A DNA stretch of 45,657 nt, from IMG/VR virus record IMGVR_UViG_3300045988_020044, positions 1 to 45,657 of that record; one strand, written 5' to 3'. The DNA comes from a virus. Shown in pieces: positions 4,204-39,692 of this stretch. Under the pieces are notes generated by a model. That model saw nothing but the letters and a program-made list of their open reading frames with translations, ran no database searches and was not told the origin of the DNA. The position numbers and the translations under genes are program-made. Within the stretch, counting starts at the first letter, position 1, and every line of letters begins with the position of its first letter.

Positions 4204-4400
4204 CTGAATTTGAAATCCATATACCGGCACGTAAAAAGGCAGTAGTGTCAGAACGAGACATGGCGGTAAAAGTGACCGGGGAAGCGTATAATGCTTTGAC
4301 AGAAATTTACAATGAAAGCACTTTATCAATGCGCCAGATCGCAAGTCTTCTGATTGTAGAAGGTAGCAAACATATCGTATACGACAAAGCGGAGGTGTGA
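4200..4400 (+). CDS. hypothetical protein (66 aa)
   Basis: ORF track with an AAGGAGGA SD. Confidence 0.55.
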   Translation: MTEFEIHIPARKKAVVSERDMAVKVTGEAYNALTEIYNESTLSMRQIASLLIVEGSKHIVYDKAEV

Positions 4401-4403
4401 GCT

Positions 4404-5045
4404 ATGGCAAACTTAATTGGAATCATGGGTGAACCCGGAAGTGGTAAAAGTACATCCCTTCGCAATCTCAATTCAGGAGAAACTTATTACTGTGATTGCG
4501 ATGGAAAAGGTCTGAATTGGAAAGGGTGGAGAGATCAGTATTCCACTGATAAGAACAATTATGTAAAGACCAGTTTTCCGCAGACTATAGTCAAATATCT
4601 TTTAAACATTGCAGAAAAAGCACCGCATATCCATTATTTCGTTGTTGATACCGTAAATAACTTAATGGTATCGGACGAAATGAGGAGATGCAAAGAGAAA
4701 GGCTATGACAAGTGGATGGACCTCGCCTCGAGCATCTGGGACTTGGTAGATATTCCGTCAAAGCTCAGAGATGATCTGACAGTGATCCTGCTGTTCCACA
4801 CGCAAACAGAAATGACTGACGCAGGCTATGAGTTTACCAGAATCAAAACCAATGGAAGAAAGACTGAGAAAAACAACATCGACAGTAAGTTCAACTGGTT
4901 GCTCAGATCAATGAAGCAGGAGAATACCTATTGTTTTTCAACCACTTCTCATAATGACACTGCAAGAACGCCACTGGGAGCATTTGAAGAGGAATATATT
5001 CTGAATGATATTGTGAAGGTCATTGAAGTTATGAAGGAGTTTTGA
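4404..5045 (+). CDS. P-loop ATPase, AAA_24/Sak4-like recombination protein
   Basis: Walker A GEPGSGKST and Walker B-like YFVVDTV. Size and position next to a DUF669-like gene fit this family. Confidence 0.7.
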   Translation: MANLIGIMGEPGSGKSTSLRNLNSGETYYCDCDGKGLNWKGWRDQYSTDKNNYVKTSFPQTIVKYLLNIAEKAPHIHYFVVDTVNNLMVSDEMRRCKEKGYDKWMDLASSIWDLVDIPSKLRDDLTVILLFHTQTEMTDAGYEFTRIKTNGRKTEKNNIDSKFNWLLRSMKQENTYCFSTTSHNDTARTPLGAFEEEYILNDIVKVIEVMKEF

Positions 5046-5242
5046 TGAGAGAACAAAACTGGTATGTATTTTTAATAGGCCGATACGCCTATCGGATAAG
5101 ATGTGAATCGTATTATATTCATCAATTATACCATGACAAAGCAATTCGTGGGTACAGGAAATGTTCAAGCAAAGAAGAAGCTATTTCTATGTGCTATGAC
5201 TATAACAAATATTTAAAAGGAGATAAAAAACATGGCAATTAA
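5042..5242 (+). CDS. hypothetical protein (66 aa)
   Basis: ORF track; overlaps its neighbours in operon style. Confidence 0.45.
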   Translation: MMREQNWYVFLIGRYAYRIRCESYYIHQLYHDKAIRGYRKCSSKEEAISMCYDYNKYLKGDKKHGN

Positions 5243-5822
5243 AAGATTTGGAGATTATGAAAAAACACAGGCTTATGGAGATTACGAAGTGCTTCCAAAA
5301 GGTGGCTATGTTGTAAAGATTCTTGGAGCCGAAGTTTGTAACAACAGTGTAGGCCAGTACGTAAAAATCAGTTGCGATATTGCAGAAGGCGAATATGCGG
5401 GCTTCTATGCAAAAGAATATAAAGCTCAGCAGAGCGAGGATAAGAAATGGCACTGCAATTATCTTCTGAATATTCCGAATGACGACGGATCAGAGAAAGA
5501 TAACTGGACAAAGAGACGCTTTAAAACATTTACAGAAGCTCTTGAAGAATCCAATCCGGGATACCACTTTGACTGGGATGAGCAGAAATTCAAAGGTAAG
5601 ATTGCCGGCGGTCTTTTTAATGAAAGAGAATACGAAAAGAATGACGGAAGCATTGGAAGAGCTACCAATCTGGCATCCTTCTGTAAAGTCGATAAAATTC
5701 GCTCCGGTGATTACAAACTTCCAAAAGACAAAATCTTAAGTAGCAATAATTCTTCACGCACTAATTCAGATGATTTTATGAGTGTTCCAGACGGTGCAGA
5801 TGAGGAGATGCCATTCAACTAA
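5232..5822 (+). CDS. DUF669-like protein (putative ssDNA-binding partner of Sak4)
   Basis: The pattern LPKGGYVVKILGAEV...YVKISCDIAEGEYAG resembles DUF669, and synteny agrees. Confidence 0.5.
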   Translation: MAIKRFGDYEKTQAYGDYEVLPKGGYVVKILGAEVCNNSVGQYVKISCDIAEGEYAGFYAKEYKAQQSEDKKWHCNYLLNIPNDDGSEKDNWTKRRFKTFTEALEESNPGYHFDWDEQKFKGKIAGGLFNEREYEKNDGSIGRATNLASFCKVDKIRSGDYKLPKDKILSSNNSSRTNSDDFMSVPDGADEEMPFN

Positions 5823-6385
5823 TGGATATTTTTGATCAAAAAGAAGTCTTAAAGTCTTTCCAGATTCTTATTGATTCCAGAGAACAAGCGACCGAACGAG
5901 CGGAGAAGCGGTATAAATCCTTTTCCGCTCCATATAGTCGAGCAACATTGGATTATGGTGATTATACCTATAATGCAGTGTTGCCAGATGGTAGTTCACT
6001 TTTTGACACATGTGAAACCATTAAACCATTCTGCGTGGTGGAACGGAAAATGAATTTAGATGAGTTAGCCGCATGCTTTACCAGAGGGCGTGAGAGATTC
6101 AAAAGAGAGTTTGAACGAGCATTAGATCAGCAGTGTAGGATTTACCTCATCTGTGAAAATTCGAGCTGGGAAAACCTTTTGAACGGTAAATATCGAAGCA
6201 AATTCAATCCCAATGCGTTTTTAGCTTCCAGTGTTGCATGGATGGTCCGATACAACATGAATGTGGTTTTTTGTAAAGAGGAAACATCTGGAAGACTGAT
6301 AAAAGAAATTTTATACAGAGATTTAAAAGAAAGACTTGAAAGGGGTGAGTTTGATGGTTGTAAATTCGATTCAACTCACAGGTGA
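5822..6385 (+). CDS. ERCC4/XPF-Mus81-type nuclease (putative junction resolvase)
   Basis: Motifs LIDSRE, DYGDY and VVERKmnlDEL. Confidence 0.65.
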   Translation: MDIFDQKEVLKSFQILIDSREQATERAEKRYKSFSAPYSRATLDYGDYTYNAVLPDGSSLFDTCETIKPFCVVERKMNLDELAACFTRGRERFKREFERALDQQCRIYLICENSSWENLLNGKYRSKFNPNAFLASSVAWMVRYNMNVVFCKEETSGRLIKEILYRDLKERLERGEFDGCKFDSTHR

Positions 6386-6390
6386 TAGCA

Positions 6391-8490
6391 ATGAGTGAAT
6401 ATCCGAGTATGTATGATGCGGCTATCGAATATGCTAAAAAAGGATTTGCTGTCTTCCCGTTAAAATACCGCGATAAAGTTCCGCTTACCAGGAATGGATG
6501 TAAGGATGCAACTACAGACGCAGCTCAGATAAAAGCCTGGTGGCAGAAATATCCAAATGCAAACATAGGTCTTGCGACTGGTTCAGTTAGCCAGAATGTA
6601 TTTGTAATTGATTTAGACATTGATGAAGATCGCGGAATAGATGGGTACCATTCACTTGAAGATTGGCAGCGTGAACACGGAGATTTCCCAGAAACATGGA
6701 CAGCTATCACGGGACGCGGTGGATACCATTTGTACTATCGTGGAAATGGCAGAATAAAGAACCGAGCCGGAATTATTGATGGTGTAGATATTCGTGGAAA
6801 TGGCGGGTATGTAGTAGCTCCTCCATCAATACATAAGAATGGCAATCGGTATGAATGGGAATATTCACCGGATGAATTTGAGATCGCAAAGGCCGATAAC
6901 AATGTAGAATACTTCCTGAACCATGACGATCAGAAACGAGGCGCAGCTTTTACCATGCCAAATATCGTGGCAGCAGGACAAAGAAATCAGATGCTTTTTC
7001 GTTTTGCGTGTATGATGCAGGCGAAAGGAGCGTCAGATCAATCAGTGTTCGCCGCTACCATGGCTGAGAATGAAAGTTCCTGTTCGCCTCCATTAACTGA
7101 ACAGGAAGTCAAAGTCATTGTATCAAGTGCGACTAGATATGATAAAGGAAAGCCCATTCACATTGACTCAGATGGGGTTGCAACGCAAGGGTGGAGGGAG
7201 CCGGAGTTTGATTTTACAGAAAAAGGAACAATGATTCAGAGCATTAAGAACATGTGTGAAGCCATTGAGTACGACCCTGACTTGTATGGACATATCAAAT
7301 ATAACGAGTTATCATACGCGCCCTTTGTTTGCGGAAGTCTCCCGTGGGAACATGTAAACATGTATAGGGAATGGAGCAACAGTGATGACAGCAATTTGAA
7401 ATCGTACATTGAATCAAAATATGGGCTAAAGAGTCTGGAGAAGATCATGGAAGCACTTAATATCGTGGCAAATAGAAACAGATTCAACCCTGTTGTTGAT
7501 ATGCTTACTGACATTCATAAGAATAAGTGGAATAAAAAGACCGGATATATCAACAAACTACTTCCAGAATATCTGGGAGTGGAAGACACAGAGTATTCCA
7601 GGGAATGTATGAAACTGTTTATGTTAGGTGCAATCAGCAGGGCGTTCCATCCGGGATGTAAGTTTGACTACATGCCAGTATTATACGGCTCACAGGGAAT
7701 TGGAAAATCTACCTTCCTGAGACTTTTATCACTCAATAACGCATGGTATAACGACAACTTCAATACAGTCGAGGGCGACAAAGCCCCGGAAAAGCTGCGC
7801 GGTATGTGGATGGTGGAACTGGCAGAACTGCTGGCTACTAAAAAAGCAAAAGAAGTTGAGAGCATCAAAGCATTTTTAACATCCACAGTGGACACGTACA
7901 GGCCTCCATATGGACGCAGAACAGAGCAGAGACCAAGAGAGTGTGTGTTTGCCGGAACAACCAACAATGACCGTTTCCTGACTGATAGAACAGGCAATAG
8001 ACGATTCCTTCCGATAGTCACGAGAAAAGAACACGTCCTGAAATCCATGTTTGATGATCCACAGGCCGTAGCGTCAGACTTTACAAACGCTTGGGGAGAA
8101 GCCATGGAGCTTTTTGAAAGGGCCGATAGAACACCTAAGTTAATCCTTCCGAAGAATTTACAGCGATATATAGAGGACAAACAGGAGGAATTTATGGAGG
8201 AGGACGTGAGAGTGGGAATTATTCAAGAATGGCTAGACCATACAACGGAACCTCGCGTTTGCGTCGCAATGCTATATGAACAGGCGCTGGGCAACGAGGG
8301 CCGCAAGCCCACAAGGTTCGAGTCCAACGAAATTCACTCCATCATGCAGAACTGCATTGACGGATGGGAAAGGGAAAATGGTGGGAAACGGGTGAGATGT
8401 GGAAAGTATGGTCCGCAGATATGCTACCAAAAAGTCAGAAAATTAAGTGAATTTGAAAAAATGTGCGAGTGTGAGATACCATTTGACTAG
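6391..8490 (+). CDS. bifunctional primase-polymerase (Prim-Pol) with PriCT and VirE/D5-type P-loop helicase domains
   Basis: VFVIDLDID, GGYHLYY and DIRGNGGYVVAPPSIH (Prim-Pol). GSQGIGKSTF Walker A in the C-terminal half. AGGTGA SD before ATG 6391. Confidence 0.9.
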   Translation: MSEYPSMYDAAIEYAKKGFAVFPLKYRDKVPLTRNGCKDATTDAAQIKAWWQKYPNANIGLATGSVSQNVFVIDLDIDEDRGIDGYHSLEDWQREHGDFPETWTAITGRGGYHLYYRGNGRIKNRAGIIDGVDIRGNGGYVVAPPSIHKNGNRYEWEYSPDEFEIAKADNNVEYFLNHDDQKRGAAFTMPNIVAAGQRNQMLFRFACMMQAKGASDQSVFAATMAENESSCSPPLTEQEVKVIVSSATRYDKGKPIHIDSDGVATQGWREPEFDFTEKGTMIQSIKNMCEAIEYDPDLYGHIKYNELSYAPFVCGSLPWEHVNMYREWSNSDDSNLKSYIESKYGLKSLEKIMEALNIVANRNRFNPVVDMLTDIHKNKWNKKTGYINKLLPEYLGVEDTEYSRECMKLFMLGAISRAFHPGCKFDYMPVLYGSQGIGKSTFLRLLSLNNAWYNDNFNTVEGDKAPEKLRGMWMVELAELLATKKAKEVESIKAFLTSTVDTYRPPYGRRTEQRPRECVFAGTTNNDRFLTDRTGNRRFLPIVTRKEHVLKSMFDDPQAVASDFTNAWGEAMELFERADRTPKLILPKNLQRYIEDKQEEFMEEDVRVGIIQEWLDHTTEPRVCVAMLYEQALGNEGRKPTRFESNEIHSIMQNCIDGWERENGGKRVRCGKYGPQICYQKVRKLSEFEKMCECEIPFD

Positions 8491-8692
8491 AACTAGTTAC
8501 ACTTAGTTACATTTAGTTACACCCCAAGATACACCTCAAACCCTTATAAATACTGTATTTTTTACTTAGTGTAACTAATGTAACTAATATTTTACTATAA
8601 AGTATATTTTAATAATTATATAAAAAGGTAATTATAGGAAAAATTAAATACTTATGTTACACGTTACACATTCAAGGAGGGGGGGGGAAGAA
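8491..8692. other. putative origin of replication: iterons plus AT-rich stretch
   Basis: TAGTTACA x3 at 8494, 8504 and 8514 (10-bp phasing). Inverted TGTAACTA x2 at 8570 and 8579. GTTACAC x2 at 8656 and 8663. An almost pure A/T stretch lies at about 8587-8650. Confidence 0.6.
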
Positions 8693-23950: not shown

Positions 23951-24066
23951 TTATTTGCTCAGAATTATGCTGTCTGTTTGTAGGCGGTCTATGGTTCGGG
24001 TAAATTATCCCATGGGTAAAGGTTAACGCTTATCCTGTTAACTGCTGGACAGTTCGAAAAGTGCAG

Positions 24067-24139
24067 TGAAATATAGCGCAGTTGGTAGAGCAACATCCGC
24101 ATAGGGTGCGTGTCGGCGGTTCGATTCCGCCTATTTCAT
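24067..24139 (+). tRNA. tRNA with CAU anticodon (Met/Ile2-type) but G at position 33
   Basis: Acceptor TGAAATA/TATTTCA, D-arm GCGC-AGTTGGTA-GAGC, anticodon loop CGCATAG, T-arm GGCGG-TTCGATT-CCGCC. No encoded CCA. Confidence 0.65.
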
Positions 24140-24217
24140 TACCTTGCCAGTGGTCTAACTGGCTTAATCCATTTTACCTGCGGCGGCAGGTCAATAAACA
24201 CGACCAGGAGGATGTAT

Positions 24218-28966: not shown

Positions 28967-29467
28967 ATGCCAGTTACAGGAAAAATTGACCGTAAATATA
29001 TGGCTCATTATATCGACGCAGGCTCCCTCTGCGGAGGACTGACACCGAAGTATGAACGTCTTGGAAAAGATCTGGAAGAGTACAATGTTGAACTCAATCC
29101 AGACACCGAAACCTCTAAAAACATTCTTGGAGAATCCACATTCAAACATAACGGCTACGAAGTTTCTTCTGACGCTGATCCATTCTATGCAGACACTACT
29201 TCTGATCTGTTCACAGCATTGCAGAAGATCGTAGACAACAGATACAAAGACGATAATCTCAAAACAAAAGCAGTTGAGGTCCATCTCTGGACGGAAGCTA
29301 CAGCAGGCAAGTATGAAGCATATCAGCAGGACTGCTACGTTGTGCCGACCTCCTACGGCGGTGATACATCTGGCTATCAGATTCCGTTTACCGTCAATTA
29401 TACCGGCGAACGAGTAAAAGGAAAATTTGATATCAGTTCCGGCACATTTACAGCTGACAGCGAATAA
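28967..29467 (+). CDS. major tail protein
   Basis: 166 aa, immediately before the chaperone pair and the tape measure gene. Confidence 0.75.
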   Translation: MPVTGKIDRKYMAHYIDAGSLCGGLTPKYERLGKDLEEYNVELNPDTETSKNILGESTFKHNGYEVSSDADPFYADTTSDLFTALQKIVDNRYKDDNLKTKAVEVHLWTEATAGKYEAYQQDCYVVPTSYGGDTSGYQIPFTVNYTGERVKGKFDISSGTFTADSE

Positions 29468-29489
29468 TTTTTTTAGGAGGGCATAGAAA

Positions 29490-29915
29490 ATGGCAAAAAC
29501 AATTAATACAAACATTGATGATGGATTTCTTCTTTTCACATTCACGAACAAGCAGGGTGAAGTGTTCTCTTCATTCAAACTGAATCCTACCGACATCAAC
29601 ATTGCGGCAAGAGCGGAAGAATTGGAAACTTTCTTTGAACAGGCTCGGGAATCTGTTAAAAATGTTTCTTCCAGCAAAGAGATGGCGGAGATTAATAAGC
29701 AGATTGAGGACAAAATCAATTATATGCTCGGATACGAAGCATCTAAGGATTTATTCAAAGAACCAATTACCGCAACAACTGTTTTTGGAAATGGTCAGGT
29801 GTTTGCCTATATCGTTCTGGACAAAATCAATGAAGCACTTACTCCGGAAATTGAAAAGAGAAAGAAAAAAATGCAGGAAGTGGTCAATAGGTACACGGAG
29901 AAGTATGCAAAATGA
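29490..29915 (+). CDS. tail assembly chaperone
   Basis: Position between the major tail protein and the tape measure gene. Confidence 0.6.
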   Translation: MAKTINTNIDDGFLLFTFTNKQGEVFSSFKLNPTDINIAARAEELETFFEQARESVKNVSSSKEMAEINKQIEDKINYMLGYEASKDLFKEPITATTVFGNGQVFAYIVLDKINEALTPEIEKRKKKMQEVVNRYTEKYAK

Positions 29916-30484
29916 CTGCCTATGAGTTGCCCACCTCACTAAATATCAGTGGGGTGGATTTTTCTATCAGGACAGATTTTCGAGTAATTATTGATATTCT
30001 GGTTGCCATGAACGACCCAGAATTAGACGAACAAGCGAAAGCTATTGTTATGTTACAGATTCTATTTGAGGACTGGCAAAGTATACCCCCAGAACATCTT
30101 ACAGAAGCTTGTCAGAAAGCTTGCGAGTTTATCGACTGCGGTCAAATTGATGATAGTCCGAATAAGCCAAAACCCCGCTTGATGGACTGGGAGCAGGACG
30201 GAGATATGATCGTTCCGGCGGTAAACAAGGTTGCCGGCAAAGAAATCAGAGCAGTGCCTTATATGCACTGGTGGACGTTTTTCGGATACTTTATGGAGTC
30301 TGGCGAGTGCTTGTTCAACACGGTCGTTGGAATCCGTTCAAAAAAAGCAAAGGGTGAAAAGCTCGATAAATGGGAAAAGAAATTCTATCAGGAAAACAAG
30401 AACATTATTGATATAAAAACACGTCTCAGCGAAGAAGAGCAAGCGTACAAGAATGCGCTGAATGAGATGTTGAACCTCAAATAG
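29912..30484 (+). CDS. tail assembly protein, Gp15-like
   Basis: ELPTSLNISGVDFSIRTDFRVIIDIL resembles Phage_Gp15. It lies in the -1 frame relative to the preceding ORF. Confidence 0.6.
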   Translation: MTAYELPTSLNISGVDFSIRTDFRVIIDILVAMNDPELDEQAKAIVMLQILFEDWQSIPPEHLTEACQKACEFIDCGQIDDSPNKPKPRLMDWEQDGDMIVPAVNKVAGKEIRAVPYMHWWTFFGYFMESGECLFNTVVGIRSKKAKGEKLDKWEKKFYQENKNIIDIKTRLSEEEQAYKNALNEMLNLK

Positions 30485-30499
30485 TTAGGAGGTGGACGC

Positions 30500-31000
30500 A
30501 TGGCTGCTGATGGCTCAGTCATTATTGATACCAGAATGGACACATCAGGCGTGCAAAACGGTGTATCAGCAATCAGACAGTCTTTTAACGGACTTGGCAG
30601 CGTAGTAAAAAAAATAGGCATACTGATTGGCGGAGCATTCGCAATTGGGAAACTGGCCCAGTTTGGGAAAGAGTGCGTAGAACTTGGCTCTAATCTGGCA
30701 GAAGTGCAGAACGTGGTTGATGTTACATTTACAACCATGTCTGATAAGGTAAACGAATTTGCGAAGAACGCCATGACCTCAGCCGGACTGTCAGAAACGA
30801 TGGCGAAACAATATGTTGGTACATTCGGAGCAATGTCTAAGTCGTTCGGATTTTCAGAACAGCAGGCTTATGATATGTCAACGGCTCTGACACAGCTAAC
30901 TGGTGATGTGGCATCATTTTACAACATTAGTCAGGACTTGGCTTATATAAAACTGAAGTCAGTTTTTACAGGAGAAACGGAAACACTTAAAGACTTGGGT
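30500..31000 (+). CDS. tape measure protein, exon 1 (167 codons)
   Basis: Ends ...KSVFTGETETLKDLG. The conserved TMP core continues at 31900. Confidence 0.8.
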
Positions 31001-31167
31001 TAACAATTAGCTCCCTTACACAGCAATGTGTATTGAATAACATGGTGAACGAAGAAATCTTCGGTGTGTTGCTTTATGAGCAATGCTAACGGTAAAAGCC
31101 TAAAATTATTTAAAAAACTTGTGGTTATGACACCTATATGATATAATATTTATAGGAGGTGATTTCC

Positions 31168-31710
31168 ATGAGTGAAGAAATTTGGAAAGATATTAACGGC
31201 TACGAAGGTCTGTATCAAGTAAGCAATCTGGGAAGAATAAAAAGTCTTGAGCGTAGATGCAAGGCAAAATGGTATACAAGAAAAGTACCAGAGAAAATTT
31301 ATTCTCCTGCGCTTGATACTTACGGTTATCCAATAGTCTCTTTGCATAAAGACGGCAAAAAGAAAACAATTACAATTCATAAATTGGTTGCAAATGCTTT
31401 TCTTGAAAAGCCGGACGGTTGCAATTCTATTAATCACATTGACGAAAACAAGCAGAATAATTGCGTTGAAAATCTTGAATGGTGTACTGTTCAAGAAAAC
31501 AATGCTTATGGAACGAGAGTAGAACGATTAAGAAAAACTCAGCAAAGAGCGGTTCTACAATGTGATTTAGATGGAAATGTAATTAGAGAATGGGAGGGGA
31601 TGAACTTCCTTTGTAGAGAAACAGGATATGACCAAGGCTTAATATCTAAAGTATGCAATAATGTTCACAGACATCGTACTGCATATGGATTCAAATGGAA
31701 ATTTAAATAA
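31168..31710 (+). CDS. HNH homing endonuclease (NUMOD4 plus HNH_3), intron-encoded
   Basis: EEIWKDINGYEGLYQVSNLGRI and INHIDENKQNNCVENLEWCT; GGAGGTG SD. Confidence 0.85.
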   Translation: MSEEIWKDINGYEGLYQVSNLGRIKSLERRCKAKWYTRKVPEKIYSPALDTYGYPIVSLHKDGKKKTITIHKLVANAFLEKPDGCNSINHIDENKQNNCVENLEWCTVQENNAYGTRVERLRKTQQRAVLQCDLDGNVIREWEGMNFLCRETGYDQGLISKVCNNVHRHRTAYGFKWKFK

Positions 31711-31737
31711 TCATGGCAATACCGTGCTAAGCATCGA

Positions 31738-31763
31738 AGAGTCTCAATAAGAGGCTCTTTTTT
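31738..31763 (+). terminator. terminator-like hairpin plus T-run inside the intron, after the HNH ORF
   Basis: Stem AGAGTCTC/GAGGCTCT with loop AATAA, then TTTTTT. Confidence 0.45.
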
Positions 31764-31899
31764 GATGAAAGTGTAACGACTATTCCGTAAGGAAGTAGGT
31801 TTAGGGTGAAATTCCCTATTCCGAAGTGCCATGCATCCTATTTGGATGAAGAGATAGTCTACTCCCCTAATAAATATCGGGAAACCGAGGGTATAAAGG

Positions 31900-34509
31900 G
31901 TCGTTATGACACAAAGCGCGCTTGACCAGTACGCACTTGCAAACGGCTATGGCAAAACCACATCTGCCATGACTGAACAGGAGAAAGTGGCCCTCCGTTT
32001 GGCTTTTGTGCAGAAACAGCTATCTGCCGCATCCGGTGATTTCATTCGAACATCTGGCTCATGGGCAAACCAGGTACGAGTGATGCAGTTACAGCTGCAA
32101 TCTCTCAAGGCAACAGTTGGACAGGGATTAATCAATCTCTTCACTCCTGTCCTGAAAGTTATTAACACTCTTCTTGGAAAATTGGCAACATTGGCAAACG
32201 CATTTAAGTCATTTACGGAGTTAATCACTGGTAAGAAATCTTCTGGCCAGACAGGTGCAAGTGGCGCAGGTCTTGTCGGAACAGACCCGATGGCTGATAC
32301 GGCAGACCAATATGGAGATGCCGCCGACAACGCCGAGAAACTGGCAGATGCGACAAATGATACAGCAGATGCAACTAAGAAAGCTACTAAGGCGGCAAAA
32401 GGATATCTTAGCCCTCTTGACGAAATAAATAATTACTCAACTGATAAAAGTGTGGATTCGTCATCAAAAGTACCGGGTGCACCGGGCGCAACCGGCGGAC
32501 TTGCGGACAAAATGAAAGATGCTGTGCAAAACGTTGATTATGGAAAAGTAGCAGAGGGTGAGACAGTTCTTGATAAGATGTCAAAGCCGTTAGAGAAGAT
32601 AATCGACAGGTTTAAACAGCTGGCTAAGTTAATCGCAAAAGGATTCTGGGATGGGTTAGGAGACTACGAGCCGATTTTTGAAGGAATAAAAAAGGACCTT
32701 GATTCTATACGGAAATCCTTAAAGGATATCTTCACTGACCCGGAAGTTACCAAAGCAGCAAATAATTTTTTCGATTCATATGCATATGCAATTGGGCAAG
32801 TTGCTGGTTCATTCGCCAGAATTGGATTGACAATTGCGCAAAACATCATAGGTGGAATCGAGAAGTTTCTGAGTCAAAACGTACAAAGAATAAAAAACTA
32901 TCTGATAGATATGTTTAATATCGGCTCTGAAATTGCACAAATAGGCGGAAACCTTGCAGTTGCTTTTGCCGATGTTTTCTCAGTTTTTGGCGGAGAAACT
33001 GCGCAACAAATTACAGCGAATTTAATTGGAATCTTTGCTGAAATTGGAATGGCTCTTACGGAAACAGCTGCGAAACTTGGCAGAGATATTCTGAACATGA
33101 TTGCGCAGCCTTTTATCGACAATAAGGACATTTTAAAGTCAGCAATCGAGGGTAGCCTCGGAGTAATAGAAACCGTAACAAGTAGTGTTCTAACAGTTAT
33201 TCAAACCCTTAGCGACGCAATATCGAGGTTATACGATGAACATATAAAACCGTTTTTTGATTCTATAGCGAATGGATTATCAAGCATATTTGAGACTCTG
33301 ATAACTGGATACAACACCTATATTCTTCCAGTTCTGCAAGGATTGGCAGAGCAATTCAAAGGGCTATTAGAGGGACCATTAGGGGACGCAATTTTAAAGA
33401 TAGAAACATTTCTCGGAAAACTCATTGATTCTCTGAAACTTCTATGGGAATCGGTGTTAGCTCCTTTAATTAACTGGATAATCGCGAATTTGCTTCCGGT
33501 TGTTGCGAAGATAATTGATGTTGTGGGGACTACAGCAATGAAAGTGATAAAATCACTGATTAAAATAATCGGTGATGTGGCAGATACACTGAGCGGAATC
33601 ATCGATTTTCTTGTTGGTGTCTTTACGGGAGACTGGAAGCTGGCTTGGCAGGGAATAAAAGAAATTGCAAGTGGAGTATGGAATCTTATCAAGGACGTTA
33701 TATCGGGTGCATGGAGTGCGATTAAAAGCATAATAAAAGGTGCACTGGGTATAATAAAAAGTGTTATTAACACTGCATGGAATGCGATCAAAACAGCAAC
33801 TTCGACGGTCTGGAATGCGATTAAAAAGACTCTTTCTGGATTATGGAACGCTCTTAAAACCACAGTAAAAACAGTGTTTAATACAATAAAGACTAAGGTC
33901 GTAGGCGTGTGGGATAACATAAAGGATAAAACATCCCAAGTATGGAAAAGCGTTACTACCTTTATATCTACTAAGGTCGAAGCAATAAAAACTGCTATTA
34001 CTGATAAATTTAACGCCGCCAGAGATGCAGTAAAATCTGCGTTCGAGAGAATTGTGGACTTTATTAAAAAGCCAATTAATAAAGCAATAAGCATTGTTAA
34101 TAGCGCAGTCGGAATGATTAATAGTGCGATTGGCGGAATTGAATCGGCTTTCTCCTTTGGGCCTTGGACTGTTCCAACACCGTTTGGTTCAAAGACTATT
34201 GGATTTCATGCAACATTTCCACGTATCGGAACTATCCCATATCTGGCCAGTGGCGCAGTTATTCCACCACGAAGCGAATTCCTTGCGGTATTAGGCGACC
34301 AGAAAAAGGGTAATAACTTGGAAGCACCGGAAAGCCTGTTACGTCAGATTGTCCGGGAGGAATCAGGAAAAGGACAGGGAGATGGAAATACCTACAATGT
34401 TACAGTTAATGCATCTGGCAGAAAACTGTTAGACATTATCATTGATGAAGCAGAACTTAGGAGACGTAGAAATGGCGGTCAGAATCCATTCTTGTTAGGA
34501 GGTGTGTAA
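31900..34509 (+). CDS. tape measure protein, exon 2
   Basis: In-frame GTC GTT ATG... gives VVMTQSALDQYALANGYGK...GDFIRTSGSWANQVRV, the typical TP901-type TMP core. Confidence 0.8.
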   Translation, partial: VVMTQSALDQYALANGYGKTTSAMTEQEKVALRLAFVQKQLSAASGDFIRTSGSWANQVRVMQLQLQSLKATVGQGLINLFTPVLKVINTLLGKLATLANAFKSFTELITGKKSSGQTGASGAGLVGTDPMADTADQYGDAADNAEKLADATNDTADATKKATKAAKGYLSPLDEINNYSTDKSVDSSSKVPGAPGATGGLADKMKDAVQNVDYGKVAEGETVLDKMSKPLEKIIDRFKQLAKLIAKGFWDGLGDYEPIFEGIKKDLDSIRKSLKDIFTDPEVTKAANNFFDSYAYAIGQVAGSFARIGLTIAQNIIGGIEKFLSQNVQRIKNYLIDMFNIGSEIAQIGGNLAVAFADVFSVFGGETAQQITANLIGIFAEIGMALTETAAKLGRDILNMIAQPFIDNKDILKSAIEGSLGVIETVTSSVLTVIQTLSDAISRLYDEHIKPFFDSIANGLSSIFETLITGYNTYILPVLQGLAEQFKGLLEGPLGDAILKIETFLGKLIDSLKLLWESVLAPLINWIIANLLPVVAKIIDVVGTTAMKVIKSLIKIIGDVADTLSGIIDFLVGVFTGDWKLAWQGIKEIASGVWNLIKDVISGAWSAIKSIIKGALGIIKSVINTAWNAIKTATSTVWNAIKKTLSGLWNALKTTVKTVFNTIKTKVVGVWDNIKDKTSQVWKSVTTFISTKVEAIKTAITDKFNAARDAVKSAFERIVDFIKKPINKAISIVNSAVGMINSAIGGIESAFSFGPWTVPTPFGSKTIGFHATFPRIGTIPYLASGAVIPPRSEFLAVLGDQKKGNNLEAPESLLRQIVREESGKGQGDGNTYNVTVNASGRKLLDIIIDEAELRRRRNGGQNPFLLGGV

Positions 34510-34887
34510 ATGGCACAGGAACAGTTTAAGATTGACGGGGTCATTATAAAGGCCCCTGACACATATAAACCAGTGTTCGCAACTACATCAACAGAAAGCT
34601 CTAAGAGAAGTCAGGATCTTGTTATGCACAACACTCCAATGGGAACTATCGCCGGATATGACATGGAATGGGGCGAGCTTAAATGGGGAGAGATTGCAAC
34701 GATTCTCAACTCTATGATTAATAAAAGCCAGTTCACTTTTCATCACAAAGACCCTCGGACACCCGGCAAATGGATTGATGAAACGTTCTATGCATCTAAT
34801 TTCAACATGGCAGCGCAAACGCTCAAGGATAACGAAGAACGATGGACGGGATTAACTATTAATGTAAGGAGTGTTCGACCGGTATGA
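34510..34887 (+). CDS. putative distal tail protein (small, 125 aa)
   Basis: Position directly after the tape measure gene. Confidence 0.45.
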   Translation: MAQEQFKIDGVIIKAPDTYKPVFATTSTESSKRSQDLVMHNTPMGTIAGYDMEWGELKWGEIATILNSMINKSQFTFHHKDPRTPGKWIDETFYASNFNMAAQTLKDNEERWTGLTINVRSVRPV

Positions 34888-37800
34888 TTAATGTTACAAA
34901 TCAGTTAAAAACAGAATCCCTCTTAAATAGTAACTATTATGTTACGGCGAATGCGGTGCTGCGTGATGGGACAACTTTAAACCTGGGAAAAGAAGACTTC
35001 TACCTTGACGGAAACGGCATTGTGGATTCTTCTGATTCCGGTGATTTCCCGATAGGTGTAGCCATTGAAAAGACAGCAACATTGGCACTGGTCAATGATG
35101 ATGATAGATTCTCTGACTACAACTTTGCCGGGGCACAGTTCACCCTATTTTTAAATTTGCAACTATCTGATAGATTAGAAACCATTCGCCGCGGCACATT
35201 CATTGTATCAAAAAAACCTGCCACGTCCGATGAGATTAATCTCACTTTGCTGGACTATATGAGCAAGGCAGAGACAGGATACAATACAAACCTTGTTTTC
35301 CCATGCTCTGTCAGAGAGGTTTTAGAAGATGCCTGTCAGCAGACCGGGATTGTGTTAGGTGACGCAACATTTAAAAACGCAGACTATCAGGTGCAGAAGA
35401 AGCCCGAGAACACCACTTTTAGAGCAGTAATTGGTATGGTTGCAGCTTTGGCAGGTGGCAACGCTCGCATTGACGAAAACGATAATTTGCGAATTATCAC
35501 TTTTGACGATAATACGGATACTATTACATTAGAAACAGTTCCATGGTATGACATTAATGGAAACACTATCCTTGACATTGATAGTAACGAGATTGAGACA
35601 ATTCTCGAGCGAAAAGGATTTAATCTAAATGCTATCAGGAACCTTACCTATGATGTTGACGATGCGGTTGTTACTGGGGTTAAATATACAGATAATGAGA
35701 CGGAATACAAGTACGGTACAGACGGATATGTCATCACGATTGACAACAAGCTTCTGAGTGGCAATGAACAGACGGGTGTTGACCTGATCGGAAAAGAACT
35801 TGTCGGTATGAGATTAAGACCATTCTCTTGTGACAGCATAGCAATCGGATACGCCACATTTGGAGATAGAATTACATTTTCCGACATTAAAGGCAATATT
35901 TACTATTCATATCTGACAGATGTAGACTTCGCATTCTCTGGCAGTACAAGCTTCTCTTGTAATGCAAAGAGCATGGAAGACATCGATGCTGACTATCCAG
36001 ACAGCATACAGGTCGAGGTCGACAACATAAAGAAAGATTCCGAGAAAAAGATTACTGCCTATGATGCAAAATTAAAGCAGATGAACGAACTGGCGGCTAA
36101 CACCCTTGGATTCTACTATACGGAAGAAATTCAGGCAGACGGCTCGACGGTATCATATCGTCACGACAAGCCTACGCTTGCTGATTCTAAAGTAATCTAC
36201 AAGACGGGTGTTGATGGATTCTTCTTGTCAGTAGACGGAGGCCGGACTTGGAAAGCCGGATTTGACAGCAACGGTGATGCAGTGCTGAACATTCTGTATG
36301 CTATCGGCATTCAGTCTGACTGGATTAACACTAGGGGATTCACGGCAAAAGACAATGACGGCAATATTACATTCCGCATTGACGCAGAGACAGGGGCTGT
36401 CAATCTTAATGCTACAGAACTCACGATCAAAGGAAAAACGCCTGAGAACGTGGCAAATGCCGAGGTTGAGAAGTTTATTACAGAGGTATATTCTCCGCAG
36501 ATTAAAGTTCTTCAGGAGCAGATTGACGGACAGATAGAAGCATTCTTTGGAGACTATGTTCCTGATGGCAATAATGAACCGGCGTCCACTTGGACAGATG
36601 ACGCAACTAAAGAAAAGCACTTAGGCGACCTGTTTTATATTGTAAACAACGAAGAATATGGTGGACAGGCTTACAGATATGCAAAGATTAATGGCGAATA
36701 CAAGTGGGATTATGTAAAAGACACTGCGGTGGTCAAAGCTCTGGCTGATGCGGCGCAGGCACAAAACACGGCAAATGCAAAGAAGAGAATTTTCGGAGCA
36801 GAGCCGGTTCCACCTTACGATATTGACGATTTATGGGTTCAGGGAAAGACAGGGGACATTCTTAAGTGTCAAAAGGCAAAGGCAGAGGGCGCAAGCTATG
36901 ACGCCGATGACTGGGTGAGAGCATCTAAGTATACAGATGATTCAGCAGTTACAACCTTTATCAAGGGCGTTTTTGCTGATACGATTGAAAGCCTCCAAGA
37001 GCAACTTGATGGCAAGATTCAGACCTGGAGCCAGGATACAGACCCGGCGCTTGAATGGACAGAAACAGAAGAGATTCCGTGGACAGATGTTGATGGCAAT
37101 TCCATTCTGGACGTAGGCGGAAATGAGATTTTAATTGTTTGGGAAAAAGGTAAATATATCCACAAAGGAGACCTTTGGCAGAATACCGCCAATAACGCTA
37201 ACACGCGCTGGCGGTGGGATGGAAATGAATGGGTTGAACAGAAAGCCCCAGATTATCTGTTTGATAAGATTGATGGGAAAGCAGCAGTTTATTTCGAACA
37301 GCCTAAGCCACCATACAACATGGGAGATTTCTGGATCACATCAAAAGCAGATGGCGAAGCTTCTATCAAAACAGCGGTTAGAAGCCGGTCGGATGGCGCA
37401 TTTACTGACACTGACTGGATTGATTTCAAATATGCCGATAAAACTGACATTGACAATGCGGTAAAAGAGTATGATACAAGCCTTGGACAGGATGAAGTAT
37501 TTAATAAGCTGACGAACGGCGGTGAAGACCAGGGAATTTATATACAGGACAAGAAACTGTATATCAATGCAAATTACATCCTTGCAGGCGTTTTGGCAGG
37601 CAAATTTATCAATGCGAAAGGCATAAAGGTTATTGATAAGGACAACCAAACAACCTTATACATTGATGATAACGGGAAAGTTCATATTCTTGCCACCGAA
37701 TTTTCTTTGCAGGGCAAGAGCGTATCCGATATTGCCACGGATGCGGCTACGGAAGAAGCGAAGAAATATAAGACTCTAAATGTAACATTATCGAATGAGT

Positions 37801-39692
37801 ATCAGGGTATTCCAACGGATGCGGAAGGTAATTACACAGCATTCCCTGAGTGCAAAACGACGGTGACGGCGTTGTATGGCGATGAGAATGTTACAAACAG
37901 CGCAACTATAACGTTTACTGCCGGAAGCGGGGTTACGGGTTCAAAATCAGGAGCAACATATACAGTAACGGCACTTTCATCTGATACAGGAATTATTACG
38001 GTGTCAGTTTCTTATAATAATCTCTCTGTTGAGAAGCAGTTTGCAATTGCAAAACAGAAACAGGGTATTCAGGGATTACAGGGTATTCAGGGAATAAATG
38101 GAAAAGACGGAATAAGTGGAAAAGACGGTCAGGACGGAAAGACATCTTATTTTCATATCAAATATAGTTCTGTTGCAAACCCGACTTCTTCCAGTCAGAT
38201 GAGTGAAACGCCAAGTACCTATATTGGCACTTATGTGGACTATACAGAAGCGGATAGCGACGACCCTGGCAAATACACATGGAGTCGATTTGAAGGCAAG
38301 GACGGGGCACAAGGAATCCCTGGAACAAATGGAGATAACGGGCAAACATCTTATCTCCATATTGCTTATGCGACCAGTTCTGACGGAAAAACAGGTTTCT
38401 CAGTGTCTGATAGTGCAGGCAAGACTTACATCGGGCAGTATACCGATTTTAAAGAGAATGATTCTACAAATCCAAGTGATTACAGCTGGACGAAGATAAA
38501 AGGCGATACTGGAAACGGTGTATCTGCAATTGTGCAACATTACCTTGCTTCTTCAAGTTCATCAGGTGTGACAACATCCACATCAGGTTGGACGGAATCT
38601 GTGCAGACACCAACATCATCTAAAAGATATTTGTGGAATTATCAGACAACCACATACACGGACGGAACGAGTGTGAACACTACTCCACATGTTATCGGTG
38701 TATACGGAGAAAAAGGCGATGATGGCAAAGACGCGTCAGATATGACCCAGTTGGATATTTTTAATAAATTGACCAACAACGGGGAAACACAGGGGCTATA
38801 TCTTTATAACAACAAGGTGTATCTGAATGCCTCGTATATTGACACCGGGTATCTGGCTGGATGGGGAGTTGGATATAAAAAGCTTTCAGCAAATGGCACG
38901 TATGGAGAAGTAACGCTAGACGCTTCAGCTGGGGAAATCTATTCAGAGACGAATACAGGAATATATGTGCCGGGGTACGGGACGTTGTATGGAACGCGAA
39001 TCAGAGGAATCAATCTTTATACAGGAACCGTACACGCAAGCTCAGCCTCGTTTAATACTAGCGTTTCGGCGAGCAGCGTTTCAGCGAGCAGTGTTTCAGC
39101 ATCAGGAAAAGTTAAAGCAGGCACACACGTAGAAGCCAGTGGTCATTTCTATAGCATCGGAACGGGAACGGACCTTGCAGATGCTTCTATCAGAGGGAAG
39201 TTGAAAGTAAGCGGGACAAAATCAAGATCAGTTTCGACGGTAGACTATGATGAGCAACTCTTTTACTGCTATGAAATGTCAACCCCATTCTTTGGAGATA
39301 TCGGTGAATCTGTAATATCGGATGACGGGACTTGTATGATTGACATAGATGATATCTTTCAGGAATCTGCGAATGTCGGCATTAAATATTATGTGTTCTT
39401 GCAAAGAGAAGGAGAGGGCGACTGCTGGATAGCTGAGAAAGAGCAGAATTATTTTGTTGTAAAAGGAACTCCGGGACTTAAATTTTCGTTCGAAATCAAA
39501 GCAAGACAAGCTGAATATGAGCATATGCGATTTACTGACCCGGGAGATACGGCTTATACAGACGCAAGAGATATAGAAATCTCGGAACCAGATTATGAAT
39601 CAGAAGAAACAGAGGTCTCGGAACCAGATTATGAATCAGAACTTACTAACGACAGATTAAGCATTATCAATCAGATGGAGGTAATATCATGA
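34884..39692 (+). CDS. tail-associated/receptor-binding protein (Tal-like N-terminus, collagen-like G-X-Y runs, duplicated beta-rich modules)
   Basis: 1602 aa after Dit. G-X-Y x9 at 38064-38144. Duplicated TSY(F/L)HI(K/A)Y...Y(T/S)W modules. Confidence 0.75.
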   Translation: MINVTNQLKTESLLNSNYYVTANAVLRDGTTLNLGKEDFYLDGNGIVDSSDSGDFPIGVAIEKTATLALVNDDDRFSDYNFAGAQFTLFLNLQLSDRLETIRRGTFIVSKKPATSDEINLTLLDYMSKAETGYNTNLVFPCSVREVLEDACQQTGIVLGDATFKNADYQVQKKPENTTFRAVIGMVAALAGGNARIDENDNLRIITFDDNTDTITLETVPWYDINGNTILDIDSNEIETILERKGFNLNAIRNLTYDVDDAVVTGVKYTDNETEYKYGTDGYVITIDNKLLSGNEQTGVDLIGKELVGMRLRPFSCDSIAIGYATFGDRITFSDIKGNIYYSYLTDVDFAFSGSTSFSCNAKSMEDIDADYPDSIQVEVDNIKKDSEKKITAYDAKLKQMNELAANTLGFYYTEEIQADGSTVSYRHDKPTLADSKVIYKTGVDGFFLSVDGGRTWKAGFDSNGDAVLNILYAIGIQSDWINTRGFTAKDNDGNITFRIDAETGAVNLNATELTIKGKTPENVANAEVEKFITEVYSPQIKVLQEQIDGQIEAFFGDYVPDGNNEPASTWTDDATKEKHLGDLFYIVNNEEYGGQAYRYAKINGEYKWDYVKDTAVVKALADAAQAQNTANAKKRIFGAEPVPPYDIDDLWVQGKTGDILKCQKAKAEGASYDADDWVRASKYTDDSAVTTFIKGVFADTIESLQEQLDGKIQTWSQDTDPALEWTETEEIPWTDVDGNSILDVGGNEILIVWEKGKYIHKGDLWQNTANNANTRWRWDGNEWVEQKAPDYLFDKIDGKAAVYFEQPKPPYNMGDFWITSKADGEASIKTAVRSRSDGAFTDTDWIDFKYADKTDIDNAVKEYDTSLGQDEVFNKLTNGGEDQGIYIQDKKLYINANYILAGVLAGKFINAKGIKVIDKDNQTTLYIDDNGKVHILATEFSLQGKSVSDIATDAATEEAKKYKTLNVTLSNEYQGIPTDAEGNYTAFPECKTTVTALYGDENVTNSATITFTAGSGVTGSKSGATYTVTALSSDTGIITVSVSYNNLSVEKQFAIAKQKQGIQGLQGIQGINGKDGISGKDGQDGKTSYFHIKYSSVANPTSSSQMSETPSTYIGTYVDYTEADSDDPGKYTWSRFEGKDGAQGIPGTNGDNGQTSYLHIAYATSSDGKTGFSVSDSAGKTYIGQYTDFKENDSTNPSDYSWTKIKGDTGNGVSAIVQHYLASSSSSGVTTSTSGWTESVQTPTSSKRYLWNYQTTTYTDGTSVNTTPHVIGVYGEKGDDGKDASDMTQLDIFNKLTNNGETQGLYLYNNKVYLNASYIDTGYLAGWGVGYKKLSANGTYGEVTLDASAGEIYSETNTGIYVPGYGTLYGTRIRGINLYTGTVHASSASFNTSVSASSVSASSVSASGKVKAGTHVEASGHFYSIGTGTDLADASIRGKLKVSGTKSRSVSTVDYDEQLFYCYEMSTPFFGDIGESVISDDGTCMIDIDDIFQESANVGIKYYVFLQREGEGDCWIAEKEQNYFVVKGTPGLKFSFEIKARQAEYEHMRFTDPGDTAYTDARDIEISEPDYESEETEVSEPDYESELTNDRLSIINQMEVIS

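Follow-up and report, generated by a model that had tools for sequence, protein, structure and literature searches.

The question raised by this locus is how, if at all, a phage could make its tape measure protein (TMP) in one piece from a gene that is interrupted by 899 nt of inserted sequence. The stretch of DNA analyzed, hereafter the window, is the viral record IMGVR_UViG_3300045988_020044 of IMG/VR (45,657 nt, one strand, 5′ to 3′), in which the insert occupies positions 31001–31899. This insert is very probably a functional mobile group I intron that carries an HNH homing endonuclease gene (HEG) within the TMP gene, its splicing being predicted from the fold of the RNA. Such an element had been proposed in a sequence-only reading of the window, and the proposal is supported here by (i) exact presence/absence alleles, (ii) homology to phage introns, (iii) covariation of the fold and (iv) constraint on the non-coding part of the element.

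The open reading frame (ORF) of TMP exon 1 (30500–31003, plus strand) closes at TAA 31001–03 after ...FTGETETLKDLG. The TMP frame is open again from 31900, after a last in-frame stop at TAA 31894 and with its first ATG at 31906, and excision of 31001–31899 (899 nt) yields a TMP of 1036 aa without an internal stop. Inspection of the ORFs thereby bore out the earlier description of the stop, the in-frame reopening and the joined length. The insertion point lies between codons Gly167 and Val168 of the TMP, and the GC content is 36% in the intron and 42% in its flanks. The locus is organized as follows.

30500–31000, plus strand: TMP exon 1, 167 codons, ending ...LKDLG; its last 4 nt, GGGU, are the exon strand of helix P1
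31001–31899, plus strand: predicted group I intron, 899 nt, starting with UAA (immediate in-frame stop) and ending with G31899
31168–31710, plus strand: HEG, 180 aa, NUMOD4 and HNH, I-HmuI-like, with Shine-Dalgarno (SD) sequence AGGAGG at 31154–59, placed in the P5/P5a terminal loop
31900–34509, plus strand: TMP exon 2, 869 codons and stop, starting VVMTQ...

Both pieces were assigned to one TMP gene because the profile PHROG 1535 (“tail length tape measure protein”) crosses the joined junction: it matches exon 1 at profile positions 162–298 (E = 1.7e-25), exon 2 at positions 303–1148 (E = 4e-129), and the joined TMP in one unbroken stretch (positions 163–431) that spans the junction. The gene upstream of TMP has Phage_Gp15, and TMP is placed between the tail chaperone and distal tail genes. 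The label of a “TP901-type” core, given earlier, was not verified, as Pfam and NCBIfam searches with the TMP halves and the joined N-terminus matched no TMP family.

The alignment with uninterrupted TMP homologues that the sequence-only reading had recommended showed that the in silico junction GGT/GTC (the slash marks the point of ligation) is gapless against three of them, including the TMP of Streptococcus phage Javan351, annotated as a tail length tape-measure protein. The predicted spliced TMP junction is AAAGACUUGGGU/GUCGUUAUGAC. The string CTTAAAGACTTGGGTGTCGTTATGAC would mark spliced exons, and AAAGACTTGGGTTAACAATTAGCTCCC marks the intron-plus junction. In IMG/VR, the exact exon–intron junction of the window is present in 39 contigs and the exact predicted ligated-exon 26-mer in four. 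In two intron-less IMG/VR contigs (L145 and L146; approx. 89% identical to the window) the bases matching 31000 and 31900 are adjacent, and the NCBI assembly GCA_001292545.1 (CYGL01000099.1; L190) contains the near-identical empty site ACACTTAAAGATTTGGGT/GTCGTTATGACACAG. The boundaries were set at 31001 and 31899 because a shift by one base (GGT TTC) gives Gly-Phe-Val, whereas the homologues have Gly-Val-Val.

The best 80 prophage TMP homologues in bacterial genomes, mostly from Lachnospiraceae such as Blautia and also from Streptococcus, are all contiguous across the site (80/80) and 74–85% identical there; the intron therefore occupies a highly conserved part of the TMP. The exact exon–intron junction had no match in species-representative bacterial genomes, and for this reason the host is assigned only tentatively, from the TMP homologues.

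Several variants of the locus were recorded. An intron-less scaffold (ENA ERZ28617929 scaffold_16717) shares 98% identity with the window on the downstream side of the site (31909–32780) and only 89% on the upstream side (29078–30999), so that the switch in similarity coincides with the intron site; this is as expected if HEG-linked recombination marks the boundaries of exchange. Three IMG/VR loci (L156, L158 and L164) contain the same intron at the same site with a variant 3′ tail, UAUACAGG in place of UAUAAAGG, and the exon 2 beside it is diverged (GTT GTT ATG ACC...). The TMP of L190 is itself split into ORFs of 437 and 529 aa (locus positions 4280–4510); a second intron was considered at this point and rejected, since the alignment of this DNA to the window is unbroken. 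The split falls at an A-run (AAAAAAG) and is a frameshift or sequencing error.

The intron is of the phage IA2-like type, of the Twort orf142/T4 td kind. The introns of Twort orf142 are self-splicing and belong to subgroup IA2, and the crystal structure of the Twort ribozyme is PDB 1Y0Q. The Twort orf142-I2 sequence used for comparison (98.4% identical to AF132670, whose annotation reads “contains group 1 introns”) shares with the window the order of the core, the P2 hairpin, P3, P4–P5, P8 and J8/7-UAGUC, as well as the pattern ...GCUAAG-P6a-AAAGUG(U/C)AAC-GACUA-UUCCG..GGAA-GUAGG, and its host gene is also a structural gene of the tail (annotated as tail tube protein in MT151386). Twort I2 departs from the window in lacking hairpins between P3 and P4, where J3/4 is UAAUU, in its P9/P9.1 domain and in the absence of an ORF from P5.

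The closest annotated relative is the terL intron of Staphylococcus phage PH15, whose coding sequence (CDS) is given as a two-piece join with an internal homing endonuclease. It is 77.5% identical to the 189-nt 3′ arm of the window over 98% of the length, and its 5′ arm is homologous in the GGGU/UAAC splice site, P2, both extra hairpins and P4; P3 shows compensatory changes and the PH15 ORF is located in the same P5 loop as the HEG of the window. The two introns differ in the host gene (terL), the endonuclease (SegB-like in the PH15 record) and the guide (GCCC vs GCUC). BLAST with the 5′ arm alone returned nothing relevant, and the PH15 homology emerged by direct comparison. The last approx. 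55 nt of the intron are 90–96% identical in many phages of Staphylococcus, Listeria, Enterococcus and Bacillus, and the other relatives found all lie within split terL, DNA polymerase or yonO genes. Bacillus phage BUCT083 (ON107264.1, 127694–130828), phi3T and SPbeta-like phages also have a related intron 3′ core; its neighbours in BUCT083 are a GIY-YIG nuclease gene on one side and, on the other, an ORF annotated as YonO, which suggests that yonO of some SPbeta-like phages is interrupted by the same intron lineage.

The SD-led NUMOD4/HNH ORF noticed earlier inside the intron was confirmed, with both Pfam cut-offs exceeded (NUMOD4: 6.4e-18, 65.2 bits, cut-off 23.4; HNH_3: 8e-7, 29.0 bits, cut-off 24.8) and a match to the PHROG 59 HNH endonuclease (9e-47). 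The predicted protein aligns over its full length with I-HmuI (PDB 1U3E), the HNH nicking enzyme of the Bacillus phage SPO1 DNA polymerase intron (residues 6–179 vs 3–172, E = 4.5e-18). The two proteins share the NUMOD4 N-terminus, the HNH core and the positions of His75 and Asn96; they differ in an Asn that is aligned to Asp74, in the host gene and in the target site. Assembly blocks that list the identical HEG protein number 461, and each of the eight places shown (8/8) has it between TMP fragments of 167 aa and 778–867 aa. A broken essential gene would hardly be expected to show this wide spread with an exon–HEG–exon layout. Site-specific nicking or cleavage of the intron-less allele by the HEG product is a prediction with indirect support, from the coexistence of intron-plus and intron-minus alleles and from purifying selection on the ORF.

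Constraint was examined in 14 distinct 899-nt copies of the intron. Variable sites of the HEG are distributed over the codon positions as 8/4/51, indicating purifying selection. Outside the HEG, 14 of the 347 non-coding intron sites vary, compared to 51 of 180 third-codon sites of the HEG (Fisher p = 6e-15); the non-coding intron RNA is thus approx. 7-fold more conserved than the synonymous sites of the HEG. The non-coding variants are mostly located in loops or preserve pairing: C31717U and C31822U result in G-U pairs, and the P7.1 loop variant (GUAA to GCGA) is still a GNRA tetraloop. In one copy the HEG is cut short by a premature stop codon.

For the analysis of the fold, relatives were gathered by two pattern scans, HEG-bearing ones were trimmed to the P5 stem and near-duplicates were dropped, which gave 40 aligned sequences. 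The fold scored was the one named from the window sequence (83 pairs), in which P7 was given a separate bracket type as it crosses P3, forming a pseudoknot. Its components are listed below, where paired cells and two-sided changes refer to this alignment and MFE denotes minimum free energy folding.

30997–31013, plus strand: P1, GGGUUAA (30997–31003) with UUAGCUC (31007–13), loop CAA; wobble U31000-G31010 at the 5′ splice site
31018–31031, plus strand: P2 hairpin ACACA-GCAA-UGUGU, 84% of cells paired, 5/5 pairs with two-sided changes
31041–31047, plus strand: P3 5′ strand CAUGGUG, partner 31827–33
31050–31063, plus strand: hairpin A, CGAAG-AAAU-CUUCG, 82% paired, many two-sided changes, followed by linker GGUGUG
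31068–31084, plus strand: hairpin B, GUUGCU-UUAUG-AGCAAU, 97% paired, many two-sided changes, followed by GCUAA (31085–89)
31089–31093, plus strand: P4 5′ strand ACGGU, pairing with ACCGU 31721–25; homologous to Twort P4
31098–31100 and 31105–31114, plus strand: P5 5′ strand GCC and P5a 5′ strand AUUAUUUAAA
31702–31711, 31715–31717 and 31721–31725, plus strand: P5a 3′ strand UUUAAAUAAU (contains the HEG stop codon, 31708–10), P5 3′ strand GGC and P4 3′ strand ACCGU
31726–31728 with 31770–31772, plus strand: P6, GCU with AGU, 100% paired
31732–31735 with 31764–31767, plus strand: P6a, CAUC with GAUG, 90% paired, two-sided changes
31738–31745 with 31751–31758, plus strand: P6b, AGAGUCUC with GAGGCUCU
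31773–31782, plus strand: J6/7 GUAAC and P7 5′ strand GACUA (“R” element GUAACGACUA), fitting the Rfam consensus ..AGACUA; identical in Twort
31783–31794, plus strand: P7.1, UUCC-GUAA-GGAA, recovered by MFE
31798–31799 with 31821–31822, and 31802–31806 with 31814–31818, plus strand: P7.2, GG with CC and UAGGG with CCCUA, recovered by MFE
31827–31833, plus strand: P3 3′ strand UGCCAUG
31834–31848, plus strand: P8 hairpin CAUCC-UAUUU-GGAUG, 92% paired, 5/5 pairs with two-sided changes
31849–31859, plus strand: J8/7 AAGAGA and P7 3′ strand UAGUC (“S” element AAGAUAUAGUC; here AAGAGAUAGUC), fitting the Rfam consensus GAAGAUAUAGUC and Twort I2
31864–31866 with 31889–31891, plus strand: P9, CCC with GGG, approx. 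75% paired, two-sided changes
31878–31887, plus strand: P9a, CGG-GAAA-CCG, approx. 75% paired, two-sided changes
up to G31899, plus strand: 3′ tail UAUAAAGG, with terminal G31899

The proposed fold was compared with shuffled and slid controls. Standard pairs occupied 86.1% of cells in the proposed fold vs 64.7 ± 0.6% in shuffled (0/500) and 36–43% in slid controls, a measure that is inflated relative to the slid controls because the fold was derived from the window, which is itself one of the aligned sequences. Cells with two-sided changes numbered 622 (vs 209 ± 13 shuffled and 164–216 slid) and the covariation score was 0.413 (vs 0.130 shuffled and 0.08–0.09 slid). P4 is complementary in 40/40 sequences and the R element (..AACGACUA) is equally constant, but P4 served as a search anchor and the R element as a filter in building the sequence set, so that the invariance of P4 and P7 holds by construction and is not independent evidence; the covariation support accordingly rests on P2, P3, the two extra hairpins, P5, P6a, P7.1, P7.2, P8 and P9. 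The MFE of the ORF-deleted RNA is −100 kcal/mol, compared to −69 ± 4.6 kcal/mol for shuffled sequences (z = −6.8), and the MFE structure recovers P1, P2, P3, both extra hairpins, P4, P5/P5a, P6a/b, P7.1, P7.2, P8 and P9.

P1 was recovered by both MFE and centroid folding, and its guide sequence differs in relatives located at other insertion sites. The P1-like helix with a U-G wobble at the junction, described in the sequence-only reading, is present (U31000-G31010), as is a G at the last intron position (G31899); the boundaries are fixed independently by the intron-less alleles and, at the 3′ end, also by the Val of the homologues. All three GNRA-capped hairpins of that reading were likewise found and correspond to P2 (31018–31), P7.1 (31783–94) and P9a (31878–87). 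The proposed long-range pairing of 31712–18 with 31827–33 had to be abandoned: only 53% of its cells are paired, which is no better than in shuffles, and there is no covariation. The 5′ strand of P3 is instead 31041–47, for which 97.5% of cells are paired, with at most five pair types per column and a covariation score of 0.848 vs 0.219 in shuffles (0/500 shuffles).

P5 covaries, being GCC/GGC in the window, CCU/AGG in PH15 and in an ORF-less TMP relative (L011, see below) and UCU/AGA in a second TMP relative (L014), and is recovered by MFE. The position of P6/P6a in the window is that of P6/P6a in Twort. What had been described as a terminator-like hairpin followed by T6 (31738–63) is real as a hairpin and is helix P6a/P6b of the ribozyme; a simple terminator scan did not flag the P6b hairpin. 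In the window (31738–31763) as well as in L003, L011 and L014, P6b is a strong hairpin followed by 5–6 U just 3′ of the HEG and resembles an intrinsic terminator. A promoter scan of the intron gave nothing above threshold, and the sequence TTGTGG-17-TATAAT (31119–47) matches three of the six bases of the −35 hexamer.

P7.1 and P7.2 are peripheral helices typical of subgroup IA. They are present between P7 and P3′ as in IA2-like introns, at the same position and with similar sequence in Twort I2; 77%, 79% and 60% of cells are paired in these helices, in a region (31783–31822) where the MAFFT register is poor.

The short single-stranded J3/4 expected of IA2-like introns is replaced by the two hairpins at 31050–63 and 31068–84. 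The J3/4 junction normally contacts P6 in the catalytic core. This two-hairpin module has near-invariant linkers (GUGAAC, GGUGUG and UGCUAA), covaries and is kept across the 40-sequence subfamily; it occupies the same position in L003, L006, L010, L011, L014 and approx. 35 IMG/VR loci. The subfamily comprises at least 120 IMG/VR loci, as counted with one strict pattern. A literature search for a P3.1/P3.2-type description of the module found nothing relevant. If it is undescribed, the module might define a distinct structural subclass, and the Rfam miss described below might mean that counts of phage introns in gut viromes are too low, a suggestion that we regard as tentative and rather unlikely to hold.

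At the gathering threshold, Rfam detected only a tRNA in the window. In a permissive run of the covariance-model scan that the sequence-only reading had proposed, Intron_gpI (RF00028) scored 18 bits (E = 0.065), below the gathering score of 50, and the same alignment still places the R (GUAACGACUA) and S (AAGAGAUAGUC) elements. An Rfam E-value search with seven relatives in split terL, DNA polymerase and yonO genes gave no match at E ≤ 0.01, and PH15, with its CDS annotated as a join, is among the seven. Since Rfam also misses annotated relatives, the low score is uninformative, and the absence of a model hit, named earlier among the grounds for rejecting an intron, is not a valid one. For L011, a TMP relative that lacks an ORF, Intron_gpI aligns over the full length at 28.9 bits (E = 1.4e-5), and this alignment has the same P3. 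A 2025 survey (PMC11878797) likewise describes Rfam and GISSD models as weak for HEG-split phage introns.

Taken as a functional intron, the element would act as follows. The RNA of the late transcript would fold into a group I core (P1–P9 with the P3/P7 pseudoknot), free guanosine would attack after U31000, held in P1 by the U-G wobble with G31010, and the freed exon end would then attack after the terminal G31899, joining GGU/GUC and restoring a single 1036-aa TMP. Ribosomes on unspliced RNA would halt at once at the UAA with which the intron starts. When the phage co-infects or recombines with intron-less relatives, cutting or nicking of their empty site by the HEG product would be followed by repair that copies the intron into it (homing); this mobility is made probable by the alleles and by homology.

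Some observations weigh against such an intron. Apart from the limits of the covariation analysis and the low Rfam score given above, the variant G31804A, found in eight copies, disrupts P7.2 at its middle pair (G31804-C31816) without compensation. P1 contains only four exon–intron pairs, and there is no convincing candidate for P10, the only one consisting of 4 bp (GUUA 31903–06 with UAAC 31001–04) that compete with P1.

The better of two competing explanations is a split gene without splicing, in which an N-terminal fragment of approx. 18 kDa and a C-terminal fragment of approx. 95 kDa, starting at ATG 31906, would assemble non-covalently. Exon 1 does end in a stop, an in-frame ATG follows in exon 2 at 6 nt past the junction, and HEG-split phage genes that work as two pieces are known (Aeh1 nrdA, a case cited in PMC10448857). 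The in-frame ATG and the weak SD (AAGGG), to which the sequence-only reading had drawn attention, are indeed present, but they are poor evidence of a separate start: ATG 31906 encodes the Met of the GVVMTQ motif conserved in uninterrupted TMPs, and the AAAGG upstream of it belongs to the conserved intron 3′ end common to relatives in other genes. A split gene also leaves unexplained the 347 non-coding nt, the covariation of the group I fold and the approx. 7-fold conservation over synonymous sites, and we therefore consider it highly improbable. A decayed intron that no longer splices and leaves a broken TMP in a defective prophage remnant would agree with the sub-threshold Rfam score, the uncompensated P7.2 variant in some copies and the HEG stop codon in one, but it is the least probable explanation, with barely any likelihood left, given that the window copy has all core helices intact, RNA and HEG are both under strong purifying constraint, the same arrangement recurs in hundreds of assemblies and on phage-sized contigs (approx. 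45 kb), and Rfam misses annotated relatives as well.

A functional group I intron in a TMP gene has precedents. In Bacillus cereus-group prophages, the TMP introns TMP-IVS1, 2 and 3 occupy three sites and belong to classes IA1/IA2 (Tourasse and Kolsto 2008, PMC2504315); the same study describes related TMP introns at neighbouring sites with adapted P1, which are kin of the SPbeta, PH15 and Twort introns, and also lists Lactobacillus phage JCL1032 (TMP). These introns, likened to that of the window by description only, differ from it in hosts, TMP family and insertion sites. The TMP gene has been named as frequently interrupted by HEGs (Barth et al. 2023, PMC10448857), and in the same work the TMP of Vibrio phage ICP1 was found by RNA-seq and RT-PCR to be spliced to full length, with introns that contain HNH-3 HEGs. 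ICP1 resembles the window, again by description only, in a TMP interrupted by an intron with an HNH_3-type HEG, and is unlike it in its Gram-negative host and in having three introns per TMP gene. Since spliced, HNH-bearing TMP introns have already been published, the intron of the window is a further example of a known element.

Homologous TMP genes with a related intron were observed in two further IMG/VR records, L014 (IMGVR_UViG_2751185978_000007, minus strand, reverse complement approx. 5105–6466) and L011 (IMGVR_UViG_3300048923_000238, plus strand, approx. 8291–8620). Their introns are approx. 76% identical to that of the window in the 3′ core and are inserted 13 nt upstream of its site, with an adapted guide (GGGC) and the spliced reading ...GAA AGC CU/A AAA GAA TTA GGT GTT GTA ATG. 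The P5 loop that houses the HEG in the window contains a GIY-YIG ORF in L014; L011 lacks an ORF. Because this intron sits only 13 nt away, the FTGETE(S/T)LK(D/E)LGVVMTQ stretch looks like an intron hot spot.

Elsewhere in the window, a tRNA-Met gene (anticodon CAT, 24066–24140) lies a short way upstream of the structural genes for head and tail, and a 1602-aa tail protein encoded downstream of TMP (34884–39692) contains collagen-like G-x-y repeats (...GIQGLQGIQGINGKDGISGKDGQDGK...).

The intron leaves existing knowledge of group I introns unchanged and is an ordinary, well-supported example, which adds a widespread Lachnospiraceae-associated gut phage to those with TMP as an intron target. Since screening with Rfam RF00028 misses its lineage, phage introns in gut viromes may be under-counted. 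Gene callers present the TMP as two unrelated ORFs and an HNH gene (in 8/8 places shown), and the TMP length, together with any tail-length estimate derived from it, would therefore be wrong unless the intron is recognized. The intron-plus and intron-minus alleles form a natural pair for studying homing and HEG-linked recombination.

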